Shown here piece after piece: positions 19,196 through 26,918 of a DNA stretch of 34,281 nt. The stretch lies in the IMG/VR virus record IMGVR_UViG_2703718815_000004; one strand, written 5' to 3'. This stretch comes from a virus (Duplodnaviria > Heunggongvirae > Uroviricota > Caudoviricetes). Under the pieces are notes generated by a model that ran no database searches, had not been told where the DNA came from, and was given only the letters and a program-made list of their open reading frames with translations. Made by a program: the position numbers and the translations under genes. Each line of letters starts with the position of its first letter. Position 1 is the first letter of the stretch.

Positions 19196-20009
19196 GTTTG
19201 CCCTTCTCCGTTAAAAATTCGTCGGGTAGTTTCTGAGGGGCGTAGATCGGCAGAGCATCGCAACTGCAATAAACCTCCTCCCCGGCAGCAGTGATTTCGT
19301 CATAAAAACCATATACGGGCTTAATCAGCCCCTGCTCCAGCGCCCACGAATCGCGGAGGAGATAAATTTTCTCGTCGCGCTCTTTGTGGTCCTGTCGGTA
19401 TTTGTAGCCCGGACGCCGCCAGTTAGAATGCCAGCGCAGAGCAATCGCACCACTCTGAACAGCCAGCAGATACTTAACGTTGCTCGCCAGCTTATGTCCC
19501 TGGTCAATTGCCACCCGGCGACTGATAAAATCCATATCCTTCACGGACTTCTGAAAACCGGACTTCACTTCCCGGCGATCAATTTCGCTCACCCCGTCAG
19601 GCGGAATGGACGTAACCCATCCCTGAAAACGCTGTATGGTTTTCTCGATAGCCTGTTCGCGGTTGAGTTTTATCAGGTTGGCACTGGCGAAAATTCGCCT
19701 GTCGAGTTCCTTGCGAAACTCAGGTTTCAGTTTTTCAACAGTGATTTTTTTAGGGCCGTCAGGAGGCTGATCCCGTAATGCCCCGCCGTCGATGACAAGA
19801 CGGCTGTAGATAGCGGTGAGATGTTTTCTGGCTACGGTATCATCAGGGGTTTCTCGCTGAGCGGCTACACGGAGTTTCCGGCACCATTCGAGCAATGATT
19901 TTTCGCTATCCCACCCGTGATTTACGTAGTAGTTAACGGCATCCGTCAGAACCTCATACAGCGTCCTGATCCGTTTCTTCTTCCTCACCGCCCGGCTGGA
20001 AATTGCCAT
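19176..20009 (-). CDS. Minor head / head morphogenesis protein (putative)
   Basis: ORF-track frame 19176..20147; start trimmed to the ATG at 20009 to minimise overlap with the portal gene. Start is uncertain. Confidence 0.4.
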   Translation of the reverse strand: MAISSRAVRKKKRIRTLYEVLTDAVNYYVNHGWDSEKSLLEWCRKLRVAAQRETPDDTVARKHLTAIYSRLVIDGGALRDQPPDGPKKITVEKLKPEFRKELDRRIFASANLIKLNREQAIEKTIQRFQGWVTSIPPDGVSEIDRREVKSGFQKSVKDMDFISRRVAIDQGHKLASNVKYLLAVQSGAIALRWHSNWRRPGYKYRQDHKERDEKIYLLRDSWALEQGLIKPVYGFYDEITAAGEEVYCSCDALPIYAPQKLPDEFLTEKGKREFNRA

Positions 20010-21393
20010 CAGGCGTCTCCTGCTTCGGTGGTTCATAATTCGCCAGCGCGTCCACATCAATGATGAGTGGAGCTTCGCCATAGGTTTGCGTGGCATTAAC
20101 AAGGCTTGCCAGCCATTCAGCGAGGGCGGCGCGGTTTTCAGGATCAACCTGTGGCGACACGGCAGAGAAAAGTGCTATCGCCTGTTGAATCACTTTACTG
20201 TCGCTTTCCCGGCGTTTGTCCGGCGACTCCTCCACCAGCTCCTGCCACGTCGCGGTAAACTCGCGCCGCCACTGGTAAAACGTGGTTTTATAGTCCTCGG
20301 TTATGATGTCCGGGTAATCATTTTTCAGCGACTGATAAAATTCCTCGTTCCAGGCGATGTACTGCACCAGGCGTTCGAAATAATCCATCACAGGTTCAAT
20401 CTGCTGGCGTACACCATCGATATACTGGCTGATGGCTTTCGAGTCCTCCTTACCTTCACCGAATCCGTTACTGAATGCTTCTTCCTTGATAATAATGGCC
20501 GGAACGTCACTCCCGGCGGCAATATCAGCAATGATATTGTCGCGGGCAGTATTCAGCGCCCCGTCGATGTTTTGCAGGTTCAGTGAACTTACGTCTTCGT
20601 CTTTTCCAATACTCAACACGCCTTTATTTTTGGCGGCTTTCACGTTTTCCCTTTTACGCCCCGTGGCAGCAGCCATGATCCCGTCCATTTTCGAACCGTT
20701 CTGCACAACTTTAGCTACCAGTACGCCCGCTTTCTGACTAACGAGATCATTCGCCTCCATCGTGTTGATATAGGATTTCAGGGAATAAAGAACGCGCTGA
20801 AACACACTTCGTCCGGTGAATCCGAACGATGAACTCTGAAACTCCAGATAAATCGGTGTGCCGTTGAAGATTTTCAGTGTGCGTGATGGATGCCAGTCTT
20901 TTCCGCCAATCTTCAGCCTTTTGTTGGCTTCCTGGAAAAACGGGCTGTTGGGGTTCTGGTCAGTCACCATCGAACCGGAAGCGTTCAACGGGTCCCACGC
21001 GTTGATATACACGTCATCTTCTGTCAGTCCGAACGTCGGAAGCGGTTCACGACATGGAACGCTGTCGGTGCCCACGCCGATCGCTGCAGCACCGTAGCAA
21101 CGAGACAGAAAAAACAGATTTTTAATCTTCTCGTTGACCTTCATGCGTTCCCATACCTCCTGAAAACGCCTCACAACCCTCTCGTCAGGGTCTGTCTCCA
21201 CGTTATACTGGCGCGGCTTACACATCGCCATCAGTATGGGTTTTTCGACAAGTTTTCCGCCCAGAGGATGGAATTGCCACAGCTGCTTACACAATTCATA
21301 GCCAATGTCGGTTCCCGGCTGAATTTCTTCAGCCTCAAGAATATGCATCAGTGCTGAACCGAGGCCGCCAGTAATCTCGATCTCTGCCATCAA
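19954..21393 (-). CDS. Portal protein (putative)
   Basis: 479 aa ORF immediately downstream of the terminase large subunit, with an acidic C-terminus; called by synteny. Confidence 0.55.
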   Translation of the reverse strand: MMAEIEITGGLGSALMHILEAEEIQPGTDIGYELCKQLWQFHPLGGKLVEKPILMAMCKPRQYNVETDPDERVVRRFQEVWERMKVNEKIKNLFFLSRCYGAAAIGVGTDSVPCREPLPTFGLTEDDVYINAWDPLNASGSMVTDQNPNSPFFQEANKRLKIGGKDWHPSRTLKIFNGTPIYLEFQSSSFGFTGRSVFQRVLYSLKSYINTMEANDLVSQKAGVLVAKVVQNGSKMDGIMAAATGRKRENVKAAKNKGVLSIGKDEDVSSLNLQNIDGALNTARDNIIADIAAGSDVPAIIIKEEAFSNGFGEGKEDSKAISQYIDGVRQQIEPVMDYFERLVQYIAWNEEFYQSLKNDYPDIITEDYKTTFYQWRREFTATWQELVEESPDKRRESDSKVIQQAIALFSAVSPQVDPENRAALAEWLASLVNATQTYGEAPLIIDVDALANYEPPKQETPDGNFQPGGEEEETDQDAV

Positions 21394-21408: not shown

Positions 21409-22737
21409 TTACAACGCCGCGTAATTACCGTGCGCGATTATCAATCCATAGGTATAACAATCGAAAAGGTCATCAGCACGTTTATGCGCGTCTTTGTCTG
21501 CCAGGTGGAACCCGGCGATTTGTTTAATGAGGTGGTTTGCGGTGGTACGTTTGAATGAAACGGTCTTGTCGTAAGCCTCCCGGACGATTTTGCACACCCC
21601 CTGATAGTGGTAGCTGGATGCCATCACCGCCCGTTCGTCTTTACCTTTGCTGGTCAGTGCCGATTTAATCGGCGTCATATCCCAGCCTTCGGTTTCCGCC
21701 TTCTGGTTGAGGATTGCCCCCATCGCGGCGTCTTCCATAAAAATTCCCTGGCTGCCCAGACGCGGACGGCATAATTTCGCGAGGCGCTCGAGGTTGTCAT
21801 AAACGCCGGGGATATATTCAGGAAGCAATGACGCTTTAATTTGCGTCACATCCCAGTCAATAATCGTCAGTTTTGGCTCGTCCGAATACGTTGACTCATA
21901 AGCGAAATACACCACGCCAGTACCATCATTTTCGGTCCCGCCTTTCAGCGCCGTATCCATCACTGCGAAAATCATGTCGCAGTACGGCGGCATCTCAATT
22001 GGTTGACCGTCCACCAGCAGCTTATCGACATCGAGTAACGCGTCTTTGGACCAGTCTACGAACTCTGCAAGATATTCCTGCTGCCAGACGCGCGGATCGG
22101 ATTTCTTCTCCGTTTCCTCCAGTTCTTCTTTCGGAATATACGGATTCGATGAAGTTGGCGCATGGTGCATAACAAATCCCAGGGATTCATCGTGGCATAT
22201 CGCGTAGAAAAAATTGCTCTCGTCGATACCGTTTGGTGTGGAAAATACCCACGCACAGCCACGGTAATCGACAAGCGTCGGGCGTATCGCTCGGGGCCAG
22301 ATTTCCTCGAGCATTTCCGGCGATTTAGTGAATGCGGCCTCATCAATCAGCACAGCGTGATATTTACGCCCACGCCCGGCCAGTTTGTTATTGTCCGTTA
22401 CCCAAAAGTCGATGCGCCCCCCATTGCGGAGAATGATGCGCTTTTCATTTTTTGACTGACTGAGGATCAGCGGTTGCAGAACGGCGCTAATTTCATCCCA
22501 GATTTCCTGGTACTGCCGGTATTGCGCGGTAAAAATCCCCACCCTACCCGCGATAAGTTGCCCGGTGGTAGGAACGGCAAATTTCCGCGTAGCGAAACTG
22601 GTAGCGATGTTCACCAGCATCACCGTTTTACCCCAGCGACGACCACAGCATACCGCGTGGAAGCGTTCTTCTATTGCCGCCGTCCATGCAGCTATTTGCC
22701 CCTCATGAGGTTTTGGGAGATAGATTTCAATCGACAT
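21409..22737 (-). CDS. Terminase large subunit
   Basis: 442 aa; N-terminal Walker-A-like CCGRRWGKT and ATPase/nuclease organisation; overlaps the TerS gene end. Confidence 0.8.
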   Translation of the reverse strand: MSIEIYLPKPHEGQIAAWTAAIEERFHAVCCGRRWGKTVMLVNIATSFATRKFAVPTTGQLIAGRVGIFTAQYRQYQEIWDEISAVLQPLILSQSKNEKRIILRNGGRIDFWVTDNNKLAGRGRKYHAVLIDEAAFTKSPEMLEEIWPRAIRPTLVDYRGCAWVFSTPNGIDESNFFYAICHDESLGFVMHHAPTSSNPYIPKEELEETEKKSDPRVWQQEYLAEFVDWSKDALLDVDKLLVDGQPIEMPPYCDMIFAVMDTALKGGTENDGTGVVYFAYESTYSDEPKLTIIDWDVTQIKASLLPEYIPGVYDNLERLAKLCRPRLGSQGIFMEDAAMGAILNQKAETEGWDMTPIKSALTSKGKDERAVMASSYHYQGVCKIVREAYDKTVSFKRTTANHLIKQIAGFHLADKDAHKRADDLFDCYTYGLIIAHGNYAAL

Positions 22738-23818
22738 TATCCACTCCCGGCATCGGCAGAGAGTTGTGGATAATTATTTCGTTATTCTCACCACCCACGC
22801 CTTTTTTGAGGTTTTCAATCTCAGTGCGCAGCTTTTCGTTGCGAAGCCTCAGTCCTTCAAGCTCCAGATCATTGCGACTGTCAGTTGCACCACCAGCAGA
22901 ACTTCCTTTCGTCGCCATTATCAGCTTGATAAGTTCGCGCCGGGCGGCAGCCTTATCCTCCAGCAGGATCTCAACACCAAATTTCCCGAGCTTTGCCCCT
23001 GCATATAATTGCCGCGCCTCCCCATCAAGCAGAGTGGTATCAGCCATATAAAGCTGCCCCGTTCCCTCACCGCAGCACTTCGGGCAGTCCGGATTGGGTA
23101 TGGCGTTATCAACAAAGCCGAGGCCTCCATATTCCGGCTCGGGTTTGCCATCTCTGGAGGCCTGTGCCGCTGCCTTATCGAATTCTGCAATATCACGCCA
23201 CTGGTAGAGATGATTCTCGCCCCAGCAATAACGGCAGTTAACACGGCGAAATTGTGCCAACTGATTGGGGTCGGCCTGGACAATAGCCATCAACTGGCTC
23301 ACCAGTAAATCCAGGTCTGCGGTATAGCGTTTCTGGTACTGATTGCGGAAGTAGCTAATGGCACGATAAACCCTGGCATTTCTAAGCATACGGCTGGCGT
23401 TGCTGTTAGCTGTCGCACCTTGCCCCTCATAACCAGCCAGTCGGTATGCCTCTGTCGGCTTTTTCCCCTGAGCAACCAGCATCGCAAACTTAGCCTGCTG
23501 GTCAGAAATGCCGAATTCATCGGGACAGAATGAAATTTCCTCTGCGTCGCCCTCATTCAGGCACGCATCGGATACTGACTTTTTTATCTGAGATTTTCCG
23601 TTCCGCTTTTGCGCAGTCTGCGCAGATTTTTTCTGCGCACTTTTTTGCGCAGTTTTGCGCATTTCTGTCTGCGCATTTTTCGGAGGTTTTTTGATGTAAC
23701 GACGGGCTGTTGCGTAATTCAGTCCCCTTGCTTCACACCATGCCACCGGAGATATACCGGAGCGGGTGTATTCAGCAATATACTCCTGCTGCAACGCCCC
23801 CCAGTCCGGTCTGCTCAT
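22727..23818 (-). CDS. Terminase small subunit-like DNA-packaging protein (unusually long, with a Cys-rich insertion)
   Basis: N-terminal HTH-like region; central segment DQQAKFAMLVAQGKKPTEAYRLAGYEGQGATANSNASRMLRNARVYRAISYF resembles the small-terminase family pattern; Cys cluster CRYCWGENH...CPKCCGEG. Confidence 0.6.
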   Translation of the reverse strand: MSRPDWGALQQEYIAEYTRSGISPVAWCEARGLNYATARRYIKKPPKNAQTEMRKTAQKSAQKKSAQTAQKRNGKSQIKKSVSDACLNEGDAEEISFCPDEFGISDQQAKFAMLVAQGKKPTEAYRLAGYEGQGATANSNASRMLRNARVYRAISYFRNQYQKRYTADLDLLVSQLMAIVQADPNQLAQFRRVNCRYCWGENHLYQWRDIAEFDKAAAQASRDGKPEPEYGGLGFVDNAIPNPDCPKCCGEGTGQLYMADTTLLDGEARQLYAGAKLGKFGVEILLEDKAAARRELIKLIMATKGSSAGGATDSRNDLELEGLRLRNEKLRTEIENLKKGVGGENNEIIIHNSLPMPGVDNVD

Positions 23819-23821
23819 CAG

Positions 23822-24073
23822 TTAGTCCTGATTTTTATCCACCCTGAGTAGTTCGCGCAGGGCAAAGGCATCCCCTTTTCTGGCAAGCTTAAACAATGCC
23901 GCCCGTAGCTCGGCTTCACCTTTCGCTCTGCCCTTACGGATGGACGCATAAAAATTTGTCATTGCTTCCCGATTTTCTTTCAGTCGGTTCAGATCAACAT
24001 CCAGAACGTCAGCGATTTGTTGTGCAGTCATCCGGCACGCTGCCAGAGACTCGACTTTCGAATACGGAATCAT
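23822..24073 (-). CDS. Small hypothetical protein upstream of the terminase genes
   Basis: 83 aa; GGGGGTG Shine-Dalgarno upstream of the ATG at 24073; overlaps the 3' end of the upstream gene. Confidence 0.4.
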   Translation of the reverse strand: MIPYSKVESLAACRMTAQQIADVLDVDLNRLKENREAMTNFYASIRKGRAKGEAELRAALFKLARKGDAFALRELLRVDKNQD

Positions 24074-24941
24074 TTGTCACCCCCATTGATATGCAGGGTG
24101 TCTTCTTCCTGTATTTTTCGTGAATGATTTTTACTGCAGCGTTGTTCCAGGTGACCTGATGGTGAATGCGTTTATGGCTGGCGCCCATCAGGGATATTTT
24201 TACGCACGACGGCGCATACATGACGGAGTAAAAACTTTTAACGTAGGTTCCGGAATCCAGATACAGTTCGGTCATTCCGCCGCTGTTTTTCTGCGTCTGT
24301 TTCTGCCCTAACTGGACAGCACCAATCGTCATAAACAACTCACCACGGCGACCGAGATTCGTGTACGTATTCACATCCTCGTTAATGCGCCCCATGAATG
24401 AGAACGGTCGATCAACCGAACAGATAAAGCTGTTCATTGCCTTGCGTTTCACCCACGAAGCATGGCCGCCATTGTCACCAAGAAAATCCCCGCCCTGCGA
24501 CATAGCGATGGAAAGAGCAGGTATTGATTCGTAGTACGCCAGCATTTCAGAAAGGATCGCATCCAGTTTCCTTATCGGAAAATAGGCCTGGTCATAGTTG
24601 CGATCCACCCGAAACTGGAACTCGTGATAATCATCATCGAGCTGAATGAAGTATTGACACCCGACCAGTTTTGCCAGGTCGAAACAGGCATTACGGGCGT
24701 AAAAAATTGAGCGGCGGTCACAGAAATTATCGGCTTCGTCAAAACGACTGGCGATATCGGCTTTGGAAAACACCAGCACCTGTTCACCAAATTCAGCTAT
24801 GTATTGATGCCATGTCTTATCTTCATCATCAACAACGATAAAAATTTTCCCGGTATAGCCAGCACGACGCAACGTCCGGTAAGTCAGAACTTTGTCCGGT
24901 CGCCCGTGAGTCAGAATAAAGGCGCAAAAATCATCACGCAT
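24009..24941 (-). CDS. GT-A-fold glycosyltransferase-like protein (hypothetical; two DXD-type motifs)
   Basis: Segments FILTHGRPDKV...KIFIVVDDEDK and YFIQLDDDYHEF resemble Rossmann-like nucleotide-sugar transferase motifs. Start is either 24941 (GGAGGAGGAGGA upstream) or 24962. Motif-level inference only. Confidence 0.45.
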   Translation of the reverse strand: MRDDFCAFILTHGRPDKVLTYRTLRRAGYTGKIFIVVDDEDKTWHQYIAEFGEQVLVFSKADIASRFDEADNFCDRRSIFYARNACFDLAKLVGCQYFIQLDDDYHEFQFRVDRNYDQAYFPIRKLDAILSEMLAYYESIPALSIAMSQGGDFLGDNGGHASWVKRKAMNSFICSVDRPFSFMGRINEDVNTYTNLGRRGELFMTIGAVQLGQKQTQKNSGGMTELYLDSGTYVKSFYSVMYAPSCVKISLMGASHKRIHHQVTWNNAAVKIIHEKYRKKTPCISMGVTNDSVFESRVSGSVPDDCTTNR

Positions 24942-25725
24942 ATTCCTCCTCCTCCCCGCCATGCATGATCTCCACCATACGCTGCGTCATCCGGACAAAT
25001 CCATTTTCGATAGCCTGCTGATAATCAATGATCACCAGCGCCGATTCCTCGAAAAAGCACTGAATTTCAGCGGGGGCGTGAGCGTAATAGTCCGCAATTC
25101 TGCTGAAATTAAACACCGTATGACGTTCTGCCGCACACAGGAGGAATTTCTCAATATCAGGATCAAGGGACGCCGAACGTATCCGGCTGATCAACTCCTG
25201 AGTTTTCGTATCGTCGTACAGTTCACTGATATCTGGTTTATCGCCCGACGGCTCATAAACAGGCGTATCAATTTTCGTCGTGTACGGCTCCTCCTCATTT
25301 CCTGTACCTGGCAAAACATCCGTCAACAATTCATCAATTTCTGTTGAGCTGAATCCTGTCAGGGAGACATCAAAATCAGCATTGATTAGGTCCGACAGCT
25401 CCATCCGCAACAGATCTTCATCCCAGCCAGCATTCATCGGCAGGCGATTATCTGCCAGGCGGTACGCCTTTTTCTGCTCATCCGTCAGGCCAGACAGAAC
25501 AATGACCGGAACAGAATCCATTTTGAGCATTTCAGCCGCCATAACACGACCGTGACCCGCAATAATTTCGCCCTTTTCGTCAATCAGCACCGGATTAGTC
25601 CAGCCGAATTGCTTAATACTTTCTACCAGTTGTACCACCTGCTCAGTACTGTGCGTCCTGGCGTTGTGTGCATACGGAGACAGTTCTTGTAACGGGCGAT
25701 AGACGATCTTCAATTTCTCGCTCAT
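24934..25725 (-). CDS. ParB-like nuclease domain protein (ParB/Srx N-terminal domain)
   Basis: N-terminus KIVYRPLQELSPYAHNARTHSTEQVVQLVESIKQFGWTNPVLIDEKGEIIAGHGRVMAAEML matches the ParB N-terminal domain pattern; GAGG Shine-Dalgarno upstream. Confidence 0.75.
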   Translation of the reverse strand: MSEKLKIVYRPLQELSPYAHNARTHSTEQVVQLVESIKQFGWTNPVLIDEKGEIIAGHGRVMAAEMLKMDSVPVIVLSGLTDEQKKAYRLADNRLPMNAGWDEDLLRMELSDLINADFDVSLTGFSSTEIDELLTDVLPGTGNEEEPYTTKIDTPVYEPSGDKPDISELYDDTKTQELISRIRSASLDPDIEKFLLCAAERHTVFNFSRIADYYAHAPAEIQCFFEESALVIIDYQQAIENGFVRMTQRMVEIMHGGEEEEYA

Positions 25726-25843: not shown

Positions 25844-26023
25844 CTAACCATCCTGATGTTGTTGTGATTTCGCATTAACTAAGTCAATGAAGTCCTGGCA
25901 CATTTCAAGACGATGACCATGATCATCGACAAAGTTATAACGCCGAAATATATCAATAATTTCATTGGGACTTTTCCCCGCAATATGAGGATATTGTTTT
26001 GATTCGTAATTATGTTTCATCAT
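25844..26023 (-). CDS. Small hypothetical protein (59 aa)
   Basis: ATG at 26023 with GGAG 5 nt upstream. Diverges from, and overlaps, the start of the plus-strand KTSC gene. Confidence 0.35.
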   Translation of the reverse strand: MMKHNYESKQYPHIAGKSPNEIIDIFRRYNFVDDHGHRLEMCQDFIDLVNAKSQQHQDG

Positions 26024-26211
26024 CAAATCTCCAGTCAGTTGGGTATGATTCAGCAACTCTCACACTGGAAATAGCCTTTCACAATGGAGGTATCTATCAA
26101 TACTCTGGTGTTCCATCCAGGATCTATCAGGGTCTTATGAATGCCAGTTCAAAAGGCCAGTATTTTCACCAATTCATTAAAAATGTGTATCCATACCGTA
26201 AGGTAGGCTAA
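25999..26211 (+). CDS. KTSC domain protein
   Basis: 70 aa; N-terminus IRNYVSSSNLQSVGYDSATLTLEIAF matches the KTSC domain pattern. Apparent TTG start at 25999 with GAGGA 7 nt upstream. Confidence 0.55.
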   Translation: MIRNYVSSSNLQSVGYDSATLTLEIAFHNGGIYQYSGVPSRIYQGLMNASSKGQYFHQFIKNVYPYRKVG

Positions 26212-26337: not shown

Positions 26338-26520
26338 TCAGTTCTGCATACACTGCCGAACACTGTCGGCAATTTTGCAGACCTGAGAAGCTGTATCTAA
26401 AAGTTGGCGCGCCTTATCCAGGCTAACGCAGCCCACCAATAAAAAAGGCACCAGTATCGCTACCAGTGCCCATTTCGCCGCCGTTCGCGGCATTCTGTGT
26501 GTCCAGTGTTTTCTGCTCAT
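26338..26520 (-). CDS. Lipoprotein, possible o-spanin (Rz1-like)
   Basis: Lipobox LLVGC after the hydrophobic segment WALVAILVPF. Start is uncertain (26592, 26520 or 26493). Directly follows the endolysin gene. Confidence 0.4.
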   Translation of the reverse strand: MSRKHWTHRMPRTAAKWALVAILVPFLLVGCVSLDKARQLLDTASQVCKIADSVRQCMQN

Positions 26521-26534
26521 AACACATCTGGTTA

Positions 26535-26918
26535 TCAGCGTTTCAACTGAAAGTGAGGTCCGTCTTTCAGTGTTTTCCAGTCCCCGCCCCATTCGATGGC
26601 AGTTCCCAGCTCTGCGGCAGCCTGCTTAAATGCCTGCGCTATTTTCTCGTACAGAGGCCAGTCCCATGACACCTGGCTGCCAACCCAGGCAACAACATCC
26701 ACCGCATCACCGGTCAGGTGGCGGCTGTTCATGGTCTGGCTTTTCCCTTCCGCGACCAGCTGTTTCTGGCGTTCTTTCGTGCGCAGCCCTTCCGTAATAC
26801 CGAAATCAACCTCCGTCAGCTCCAGCGCACGGCGAACGACAGCAACCAGCTGTGGTTTTACGCCCTCCAGATTTTTCTCGCTCCGACGGCTGAATCTGAA
26901 TTTACCCGACATACTCAC
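26535..26918 (-). CDS. Endolysin, peptidase M15 (VanY / L-Ala-D-Glu peptidase type)
   Basis: 127 aa with SRHLTGDAVD...WGGDW...DGPHFQL, the hallmark zinc-binding motifs of M15 phage endolysins. Confidence 0.8.
   Translation of the reverse strand: MSMSGKFRFSRRSEKNLEGVKPQLVAVVRRALELTEVDFGITEGLRTKERQKQLVAEGKSQTMNSRHLTGDAVDVVAWVGSQVSWDWPLYEKIAQAFKQAAAELGTAIEWGGDWKTLKDGPHFQLKR

Follow-up and report, generated by a model that had tools for sequence, protein, structure and literature searches.

A TAGT-family glycosyltransferase and its ParB-like partner form a conserved two-gene cassette in a Rac-like Escherichia coli prophage and in other bacterial and archaeal viruses

What does a protein with a ParB-like domain do beside a putative glycosyltransferase, at the point of a prophage where the lysis genes give way to the packaging genes, and on what would such an enzyme act? 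The question is raised by a stretch of viral DNA of 34,281 nucleotides (nt; IMG/VR record IMGVR_UViG_2703718815_000004; hereafter, the window), which represents a Rac-like lambdoid prophage of E. coli. The locus consists of two overlapping open reading frames (ORFs) on the minus strand, a 263-residue homologue of ynaK (24934..25725), referred to here as the partner, and a glycosyltransferase (GT; 24009..24941) directly downstream. The sequence-only reading, which had described a ParB/Srx protein overlapping the start of a protein of 310–317 residues, proposed a DNA hypermodification or anti-defence role for the pair, and such a role remains plausible. We confirmed both ORFs at these coordinates, and the description was borne out by the ORFs, by the Pfam ParB_N match of the partner and by the junction sequence, ATGCGTGA. 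Across bacterial and archaeal viruses, the pair is a strict two-protein cassette. As to its function, we see about an even chance that it encodes a late-expressed, two-subunit glycosyltransferase, in which the cognate partner activates or targets the GT and phage DNA is the substrate.

By sequence and structural modelling, the downstream protein is assigned to the GT-A glycosyltransferases of the TAGT/JGT/GREB1 family, and this fold assignment is secure because of the profile match, the invariant motifs, the AlphaFold2 (AF2) model and the matches in PDB and BFVD. The family was reportedly defined computationally by Iyer, Zhang, Burroughs and Aravind in NAR in 2013; the large GT clade considered here comprises 1,496 clusters at 50% identity (E ≤ 1e-3). 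The GT matches Pfam PF20691, 'TET-associated glycosyltransferase' (TAGT), over residues 15–229 and profile positions 4–205 of 205 (E = 1.3e-35; 123.6 bits, cutoff 27.5), and it matches PHROG 842 at 3e-102. The PHROG label for the GT family, 'beta-glucosyl-HMC-alpha-glucosyltransferase', is unsupported by anything we found.

The residues expected of such an enzyme are deeply conserved. In an alignment of 14 distant members, from enterobacteria, Lactobacillus, Nocardia, Vibrio, Porphyromonas and one haloarchaeal virus, R21, D109–D111, D196 and H267/H268 are invariant. R21, the DDD triad and D196 are invariant across the members from Proteobacteria, Firmicutes, Actinobacteria, Bacteroidota and archaeal viruses, and these residues and H267/H268 are invariant in three alignments, while E195 is invariant only in the alignment of 49 closer homologues. 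The triad (24630..24638; D109–D111 in the numbering of the 317-residue ORF) is the catalytic DXD motif for the metal and the nucleotide sugar. Both of the DXD-type motifs that had been picked out from the sequence are present, but only LDDDY is invariant in the 14 distant homologues, whereas IVVDDED is conserved among closer relatives alone. The signature R...DDD...ED(Y/F) is that of the phage GT-A DNA glycosyltransferases and of the trypanosome base-J glucosyltransferase (JGT) (bioRxiv 10.1101/2023.12.21.572611).

The AF2 model of the GT has a predicted template-modelling score (pTM) of 0.75, and its residues 12–160 mostly exceed a per-residue confidence (pLDDT) of 90. In a Foldseek search of the PDB, nearly all significant matches were GT-A enzymes (E ~1e-4; TM-score ≤ 0.44), among them ThuS/SunS at the top, COLGALT1, SpsA, glycogenin, GalNAc-T2 and AvpGT with Ara-A, and the best matches in BFVD were viral TAGT proteins (down to 3e-26; TM-score 0.74–0.83). 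The nucleotide-sugar transferase fold, which had been suggested from motifs, is thereby upheld by the TAGT match, the model, the GT-A structures and the R...DDD...ED signature. A sequence search of the PDB returned no match to the GT at E ≤ 1, no NCBIfam model covers it, no PADLOC defence-system model matches it, and no transmembrane segment was predicted in it.

To place the pair in a wider context, we collected 159 viral-contig loci with relatives of the GT in two scans, one with the E. coli protein and one with a Porphyromonas phage protein of 27% identity, and added annotated phage records; clustering at 80% GT identity gave 84 lineages. All 84 possess a homologue of the partner, which in 81 immediately precedes the GT. 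In the second, more diverse scan, the distance from partner to GT lies between -109 and +7 nt in 77 of the 79 loci; one of the other two is a tandem-GT locus, and the second is at the end of a contig. The lineages include phages of enterobacteria, Lactobacillus, Nocardia, Porphyromonas and Vibrio, and one haloarchaeal virus; the literature on HHTV-2 contained nothing on DNA modification. No other gene is conserved around the cassette, which is both common and ancient. Among the top 150 family representatives there is no ParB–GT fusion, and the N-terminal extensions of the GT are a P-loop kinase-like domain, an S-adenosylmethionine (SAM)-dependent methyltransferase or a second GT.

The ~130-residue partners could have been taken for isolated ParB domains, and alignment rules this out. 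The upstream proteins fall into two size classes, of ~110–150 and ~240–310 residues, and the short ones correspond to the C-terminal part alone. The nucleotide-binding domain (NBD) is missing in 24 of the 81 lineages aligned, whereas a region of ~110 residues, equivalent to residues ~144–250 of the window protein, is universally conserved. One part of this region is a linear motif, Y148-x2-K151-x3-P155-x-Y157-x-P159-x4-P164, in a linker (residues 136–165; 25231..25320) that AF2 predicts to be disordered (pLDDT < 50 over residues 136–156). Y148 and P155 are each conserved in 75 of the 81 lineages, Y157 in 78 and P164 in 76. The C-terminal domain (CTD; residues 166–258; 24952..25230) that follows is predicted to be helical, with R201, A211, Y214 and D234 invariant and the signature FLxxAAxRHxVFNYxxIADYYAH..Q.LME.SALVIIDF.KAIE.GY. 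The domain is acidic, with a median isoelectric point (pI) of 4.8 and a net charge of -9.

When separate hidden Markov models (HMMs) for the NBD and the CTD were run over all of the collected loci, 177 ORFs carried a CTD, and in 175 of them the GT is the very next gene; the other two reflect calling artefacts or a separation of 3 kb. As many as 42 of the 177 are CTD-only ORFs, and in six such loci a stand-alone NBD gene lies 3–5 kb further on. The CTD belongs to no Pfam family, with just weak, sub-threshold matches to PF23887; among PHROGs, it is matched solely by the tail portion of PHROG 620; and its profile found no significant relative among PDB sequences, where the sole match, to FadA, was a spurious coiled coil. 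The best 120 database matches to the profile are stand-alone proteins of 116–192 residues without a Pfam domain. The obligate companion of the GT is thus this novel, Pfam-less CTD module, and not the ParB NBD. The expectation that the pair would be conserved together therefore held in all 84 lineages, and the idea of a ParB/Srx protein coupled to the GT survives in part: a protein is coupled, but its indispensable portion is the CTD.

The two proteins also vary together. Pairwise identities of the GT and of the CTD are correlated (Mantel r = 0.82, a value reached by none of 999 permutations), and one lineage (L166) carries two cassettes in tandem, [CTD–GT][CTD–GT], each with its own partner. 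This co-variation and the retention of a separate CTD by each tandem cassette suggest that GT and CTD are cognate pairs. From the linkage we infer that the two products interact physically, the partner activating or targeting the GT. In a close enterobacterial relative of the window prophage (L179), the order is Q, lysis genes, a CTD-only partner of 159 residues, GT, the 83-residue ORF described below and TerS. The nin-like region of that relative (L179 3989–5965) encodes a C5-cytosine DNA methylase of 658 residues (PF00145), and the gene records of the 20-kb stretch examined list no TET family.

The window protein belongs to the larger size class. It matches Pfam ParB_N (PF02195) at 27.9 bits, just over the gathering threshold of 26.3, and PHROG 620 at 5e-90. 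Its AF2 model (mean pLDDT 70) consists of the NBD (residues 7–94; 25444..25707), a helical hairpin (residues 103–134), the disordered linker and the CTD. The protein is strongly acidic (pI 4.45; net charge -26) and contains no membrane segment. Foldseek matched it to PadC, Noc, ParB-CDP, KorB and sulfiredoxin in the PDB, and phmmer matched the NBD to Spo0J and ParB structures. Upon alignment to Spo0J (PDB 1vz0), the residues equivalent to those that bind the nucleoside triphosphate (NTP), N21-x-R23, S36 and G41 (Box I), R60 (Box II) and N93 (Box III), proved to be invariant in 55 homologues, which makes nucleotide binding by the NBD plausible. Hydrolysis is doubtful, since the canonical GERR box reads G57-H58-G59-R60 (GHGR), a conserved stretch in which the catalytic glutamate and the first arginine are replaced. 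The NBD is closest to the ParB domains that are fused to DNA methyltransferases (PHROG 498, 9e-51; PADLOC MTase_II, 4e-38), the PADLOC match being limited to the ParB-like N-terminus of the type II methyltransferase model.

Could the two genes simply be unrelated neighbours, a ParB-type partition, nuclease or packaging accessory beside a glycosyltransferase for seroconversion or the cell envelope? The annotations deposited for relatives of the partner, 'chromosome (plasmid) partitioning protein' and 'ParB nuclease', point that way, and prophage glycosyltransferases often modify O-antigen or teichoic acid, as TarP does (bioRxiv 10.1101/2023.12.21.572611). Yet the two are linked one to one, with overlapping frames and co-varying sequences, and neither has a membrane segment. 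A canonical partition ParB was considered and ruled out: the partner model lacks a helix-turn-helix (HTH), no ParA is annotated in the prophage, no parS-like inverted repeat occurs within 23.7–26.5 kb, and TIGR00180 scores 35.8 bits, below its cutoff of 58.45. Lytic and archaeal viruses, for which seroconversion would be pointless, have the cassette too. We regard a chance pairing as scarcely credible, the least probable of all the explanations considered here.

The junction between the genes suggests that they are expressed as a unit. The N-termini of the GT homologues align at MRDDF, which corresponds to M8 of the 317-residue ORF, encoded by the ATG at 24941. This ATG follows GGAGGAGGAGGA, a Shine–Dalgarno sequence with a GGAGG repeat (24944–24955) that should provide a strong ribosome-binding site, and the start overlaps the stop codon of the ParB gene within the coupling junction (24934..24955). 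Because the homologues begin at M8 and the codon is preceded by this sequence, the product most likely comprises 310 residues, with an overlap of 8 nt rather than 29; the alternative start at ATG 24962, which yields 317 residues, was dropped on these grounds. From its sequence, the GT is most likely translationally coupled to the upstream gene.

The position of the cassette is equally recurrent. In the window, it is flanked on one side by the lysis genes (an M15 peptidase and holins, ~26.5–27.6 kb), and on the other by an ORF of 83 residues akin to part of the terminase small subunits (23822..24073, minus strand; PHROG 309 TerS, 2.5e-22), TerS (22727–23818, minus strand; Pfam Terminase_2) and TerL (21409–22737, minus strand; Pfam Terminase_6N), the last two also so called by PGAP on an identical prophage. 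These assignments agree with the slot between lysis and terminase genes that had been proposed. The 2.3 kb spanning the pair are 100% identical to E. coli strain STEC383, in which the element runs from intR/xisR/recET/kilR through ydaS/T, the replication genes, a Q-like gene, an AB5 toxin and the lysis genes to the pair, the terminase and the head and tail genes. TerS and TerL directly follow the cassette in ~30 of the first 37 lineages, and when all 84 are pooled, a small TerS-like gene, followed by TerL and portal, again heads the downstream neighbours. The 83-residue ORF is the usual first gene after the GT: its homologue cluster occupies that place in 13 of the initial 37 lineages; among the 84, a TerS-like cluster of ~123 residues is found there in 22 and close to the GT in 26. 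The pair of Lactobacillus phage c5 begins 90 nt from the annotated cos end. The adjoining TerL proteins come from five Pfam families or groups of families (Terminase_6N/6C, Terminase_3/3C, TerL_ATPase/nuclease, GpA and NTR1-type). In a minority of larger phages, the cassette instead lies among the replication genes (Vibrio phages of ~191 kb and polA contigs of ~70 kb, L011 and L177).

On the minus strand at window 26446–26471, a hairpin with a stem of 11 bp and TTTTTTATT behind it resembles a strong terminator; it is situated within an ORF of 84 residues (26338–26592), between the M15 peptidase gene, which it closely follows, and the ParB–GT–terminase block. Presumably, Q-type antitermination is needed for the late transcripts to reach the cassette past this hairpin.

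Taken together, these features can be accommodated by a self-contained, translationally coupled two-gene cassette that would be expressed along with the late, packaging genes. The downstream gene would supply the catalytic subunit, a soluble, metal-dependent GT-A enzyme that moves a sugar from a nucleotide-sugar donor, and the upstream gene an acidic cognate partner whose CTD and Pro/Tyr motif may bind or regulate the GT. The ParB NBD would be an optional addition, probably gating or targeting the GT on double-stranded DNA (dsDNA) as an NTP-dependent switch. The substrate would be replicated phage DNA just before or during packaging, and the outcome either glycosylated DNA that resists host nucleases or DNA that is marked for packaging. 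We favour DNA because of the precedent of JGT and the phage 5-hydroxymethylcytosine (5hmC) glycosyltransferases, the basic GT family (median pI 9.1; charge +8) beside an acidic partner that lacks an HTH, the kinship of the NBD to methyltransferase-fused NBDs, the precedent of ParB176 considered below and the position next to the packaging genes. Such a position recalls the late protective modification by Mom of phage Mu and the methylation-gated pac cleavage of P1. The family members of known activity, JGT and the phage GT-A enzymes, act on DNA bases (bioRxiv 10.1101/2023.12.21.572611).

The acceptor would not be a 5-hydroxymethylpyrimidine made by the phage itself, because no hydroxylase accompanies the cassette. 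The annotations of the entire prophage and of two completely sequenced phages, c5 (31.8 kb) and phi jlb1 (38 kb), list neither TET/JBP nor ThyS, and a Pfam scan of the unannotated prophage proteins of at least ~150 residues gave no match to TET_JBP or another enzyme. Among 150 representatives of the neighbour clusters of the 84 lineages, TET/JBP is absent from the 25 families listed, which are all those matched by at least two members; these negatives hold at the level of Pfam or annotation, and a TET gene confined to a single lineage would escape them. As no TET/JBP was found in the prophage or among the recurrent neighbours, 'TET-associated' is a misnomer for the GT clade examined. In a previous survey, ~65% of the mined phage GT contigs had no 5mYOX or ThyS neighbour and were set aside (bioRxiv 10.1101/2023.12.21.572611), and the cassette falls in that unexplained majority.

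Several observations weigh against the proposal that the partner directs the GT to DNA. To our knowledge, every characterised DNA glycosyltransferase requires a hydroxylated base, produced either by a TET/JBP-type 5mYOX or by a pre-replicative hydroxymethylase, and we know of no chemistry that would let a GT-A enzyme attach a sugar to an unmodified DNA base. The scope of the searches above also leaves room for a highly divergent hydroxylase elsewhere, or for a host-derived acceptor. The partner contains no HTH or other DNA-binding domain in its model, so that it cannot target DNA alone, and the absence of the NBD from 24 of the 81 lineages means that a ParB clamp mechanism cannot be general. 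The window GT itself is near neutral (pI 7.6). The top fold matches in the PDB include glycosyltransferases of peptides and proteins, ThuS/SunS, COLGALT1 and glycogenin. Even in ParB176, mutations of the NTP-binding residues had little effect, leaving the mechanism of the NBD unclear in the precedent too (PMC13229309), and GREB1, a member of the TAGT family, O-GlcNAcylates a protein (PMC7968844).

These last points bring up the main rival, protein glycosylation, in which the GT would modify its own partner at the Tyr/Thr-Pro linker motif, in the manner of glycogenin or of the glycocins, or else TerS, the portal or the capsid protein of the same operon. The partner is the obvious candidate acceptor, being the only protein common to all cassettes, and it presents Y148-x2-K-x3-P-x-Y157-x-P in an AF2-disordered segment, conserved in ~75 of the 81 lineages. 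The gene order, with an enzyme beside its substrate gene, resembles that of the glycocin systems from which the top fold matches come, the cassette constantly adjoins structural and packaging genes, and GREB1 provides an acceptor precedent within the family. In mycobacteriophages, virions glycosylated by GT-A enzymes are known. However, the fold matches, with E just ~1e-4 and TM-score ≤ 0.44, merely sample the GT-A structures present in the PDB, and the conserved Pro/Tyr peptide can equally be explained as a docking motif. The downstream packaging and capsid modules are unrelated across lineages, as the five types of TerL illustrate, and thus offer no shared substrate other than the partner. 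Meanwhile, the ParB NBD and its relationship to methyltransferase-fused NBDs point to DNA. On balance, we consider a protein acceptor unlikely.

Returning to DNA as the substrate, the lack of a hydroxylase can also be taken at face value. In a bolder version of the proposal, hydroxylase-independent DNA glycosylation, a JGT-like GT-A enzyme licensed by its adaptor, with or without the ParB NTP switch, would place sugars directly on canonical DNA at the handover to the terminase, possibly on a base, on the backbone or at the ends of the molecule. We hold this version to be a speculative one, with the balance clearly against it. If true, it would represent a new chemical class of DNA modification, present in bacterial and archaeal viruses and in a sizeable fraction of E. 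coli genomes.

Some lineages carry what may be tailoring genes, including a second TAGT, GT1 and GT2 enzymes, a neighbouring radical-SAM enzyme and a GDP-mannose dehydratase/epimerase, and in some the GT is fused to a SAM-methyltransferase, a sulfotransferase or a P-loop kinase-like domain. Judging from these gene assignments, the pattern would fit a pathway for assembling a glycan on an acceptor of some kind and modifying it. In two contigs of 26 and 70 kb with a family-A DNA polymerase (L177/L178, 2870–11352), a TAGT, a CTD protein of 159 residues and another TAGT follow right after polA, and two GT2 genes and three unannotated proteins of ~230 residues lie a few kilobases upstream; this arrangement looks like a larger multi-sugar pathway on the same core.

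The location of the cassette inside the replication modules of such larger phages (L011, L177), away from the terminase, is more readily reconciled with a small-molecule or nucleotide target. Here the GT would glycosylate an immune signal or a precursor, or drain UDP-sugars, for counter-defence or superinfection exclusion, and the NBD would sense or supply the nucleotide. The ParB fold binds CTP, ATP or GTP depending on context (PMC12704722), and the fold matches of the GT include AvpGT, a nucleoside glycosyltransferase, with Ara-A. But the NBD is dispensable in 24 of the 81 lineages, the GT has no PADLOC defence-family match, the basic character of the GT family is that expected of a polyanion binder, and a strictly co-evolving protein partner would have no obvious purpose. 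This explanation seems to us quite improbable.

The annotation of the partner gene requires comment. In STEC383, PGAP marks the 100% identical ParB gene as a pseudogene 'missing C-terminus' (L001 21669–21926, corresponding to window ~25468–25725), leaving ~530 nt unannotated. The call is an annotation artefact, as the ORF runs on without a break and conservation in the family is highest over its C-terminal half; the call was possibly seeded, we assume, by a truncated reference such as the ynaK fragment of K-12. The E. coli homologues of the partner also include truncated or recombinant alleles that share the first ~60–76%, often joined to Lom, tail-fibre or terminase fragments, and a junction within the ParB gene looks like a hotspot of recombination or deletion in defective Rac-like prophages. 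In some records, RefSeq names the partner 'ynaK: ParB/Srx family N-terminal domain-containing protein' and the GT 'GREB1-related protein', and the literature on ynaK/ydaY consists of strain-deletion lists, without functional data.

The pseudogene label and the truncated alleles raise the possibility that the pair is a functionless remnant of a ParB–5mYOX–GT hypermodification cluster that has lost its dioxygenase. The Pfam family is named for its association with TET, and GT and ParB are the two commonest co-occurring domains on 5mYOX contigs (31% and 27%). Among 5,426 complete E. coli genomes, 1,566 match the region, and 708 of these cover less than 80% of it. Decay is contradicted by the ratio of nonsynonymous to synonymous substitutions (dN/dS) against a 95%-identical allele, 0.085 for the GT and 0.12 for the partner, values that indicate purifying selection on both genes. 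Neither ORF is truncated, each aligning with its homologues over the whole length, and the label is at odds with the uninterrupted 263-residue frame and its conserved C-terminal half. The same TET-less arrangement recurs in 84 of the 84 lineages, among which are small phages with complete genomes and an archaeal virus. A decayed remnant is accordingly very improbable. At least 80% of the region is covered in 858 of the 5,426 genomes (~16%).

Among known systems, the α- and β-glucosyltransferases of T4 would be comparable, if the GT targets DNA, in glycosylating phage DNA after replication against restriction; they differ in having a GT-B fold, in acting on pre-replicatively incorporated 5hmC and in needing no partner protein. 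In DpdA/DpdB, which insert 7-deazaguanine into DNA, and in DndB (mentioned also in PMC12704722), a ParB-fold NTPase is the accessory of an enzyme that modifies bases or the backbone in dsDNA. The effectors of those systems are unrelated to the GT, and the likeness is one of analogy only. With the TAGT family as described, the window GT shares the strong PF20691 match, the GT-A fold and the R...DDD...ED signature, whereas the defining neighbour, the TET/JBP that makes 5hmC or 5-hydroxymethyluracil (5hmU), was found neither with it nor in the 84 lineages, and the constant neighbour is the ParB-like partner.

The closest parallel for the partner is ParB176, the cognate activator that the phage thymine dioxygenase 5mYOX176 requires on dsDNA (O'Toole et al., PNAS 2026, PMC13229309). 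By its published description, ParB176 comprises an NBD, a helix–helix element, a disordered linker of ~50 residues and a CTD, and no DNA-binding domain, the same layout as here, and the two share the N-x-R, S and GxGR residues, the encoding beside an enzyme and, as the co-variation suggests, the formation of cognate-specific pairs. In contrast, the client here is a GT and not an iron/2-oxoglutarate dioxygenase (5mYOX), and it is the CTD that is universal, while the NBD may be missing or separately encoded. The ParB–DNA methyltransferase fusions (PHROG 498; Kaljevic et al., PNAS 2025, PMC12704722) possess the closest NBD, a tie to a DNA-modifying activity and an enrichment in prophages, but in the cassette the effector is a separate polypeptide that would be joined via a dedicated adaptor domain. 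Glycosyltransferases go unmentioned in that 2025 survey of the ParB fold (PMC12704722).

The phage clusters of C5-methyltransferase, TET and GT-A genes (Burke et al., PNAS 2021, PMC8256090; bioRxiv 10.1101/2023.12.21.572611) encode a JGT-like GT-A enzyme with the same motif. They act post-replicatively, sometimes with sequential GTs and tailoring enzymes, and ParB and terminase have been noted among their neighbours (PMC8256090; bioRxiv 10.1101/2023.12.21.572611). Unlike the cassette, they supply their own acceptor through the methyltransferase and the 5mYOX.

Phage DNA glycosyltransferases are known only downstream of hydroxylation, and most GT-A genes without such a partner are unexplained in large metagenomic surveys. 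What is new is that a large GT clade constitutes a strict two-protein unit, which has a previously unannotated adaptor domain and stands first in the packaging operon. Should DNA prove to be the acceptor, no earlier case of DNA glycosylation would have dispensed with a hydroxyl group installed beforehand, and this would bear on how phages evade restriction and CRISPR, on phage engineering and on artefacts in sequencing; should it be protein, the cassette would be a new and widespread system of phage protein glycosylation. Whichever the target, the labels 'TET-associated', 'partition protein' and 'beta-glucosyl-HMC-alpha-glucosyltransferase' and the pseudogene call are all misleading. Rac-like prophages of E. 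coli render the system experimentally accessible.

Several neighbouring features of the window deserve mention. Just upstream of the ParB gene, at 25844–26211, an ORF of 70 residues on the minus strand (PHROG 18255, function unassigned) overlaps a KTSC-domain gene on the plus strand (PF13619, 4.7e-28) head to head, and neither is kept beside the cassette in other lineages. Downstream, two TerS-related genes stand in series, the 83-residue ORF, which covers only positions 145–218 of the 319-position PHROG 309 profile, and the full TerS of 363 residues; the counterparts of the small ORF in other lineages are the TerS itself, with 125–165 residues. The start of the 83-residue ORF is overlapped by the tail of the GT, 25 residues that are not conserved. 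Just after TerL, PGAP names a protein of 479 residues (L001 16155–17591, corresponding to window 19954–21393) 'anti-CBASS protein Acb1 family protein'. By its position and its homologues, which belong to a Phage_portal_3 cluster, it appears to be the portal protein, and the Acb1 label looks wrong.

The AB5 toxin genes (window 27630–28848, minus strand) are flanked by the Q-like antiterminator region and the holins and lie within an island of low GC content (0.357 as compared to ~0.50). The A subunit, of 241 residues, is a pertussis/enterotoxin-A-like ADP-ribosyltransferase (PGAP, 'enterotoxin A family protein'), and the B subunit, of 160 residues, is annotated by PGAP as 'subtilase family AB5 toxin binding subunit'. 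The two genes are toxin cargo positioned for late transcription, as in the Stx phages.

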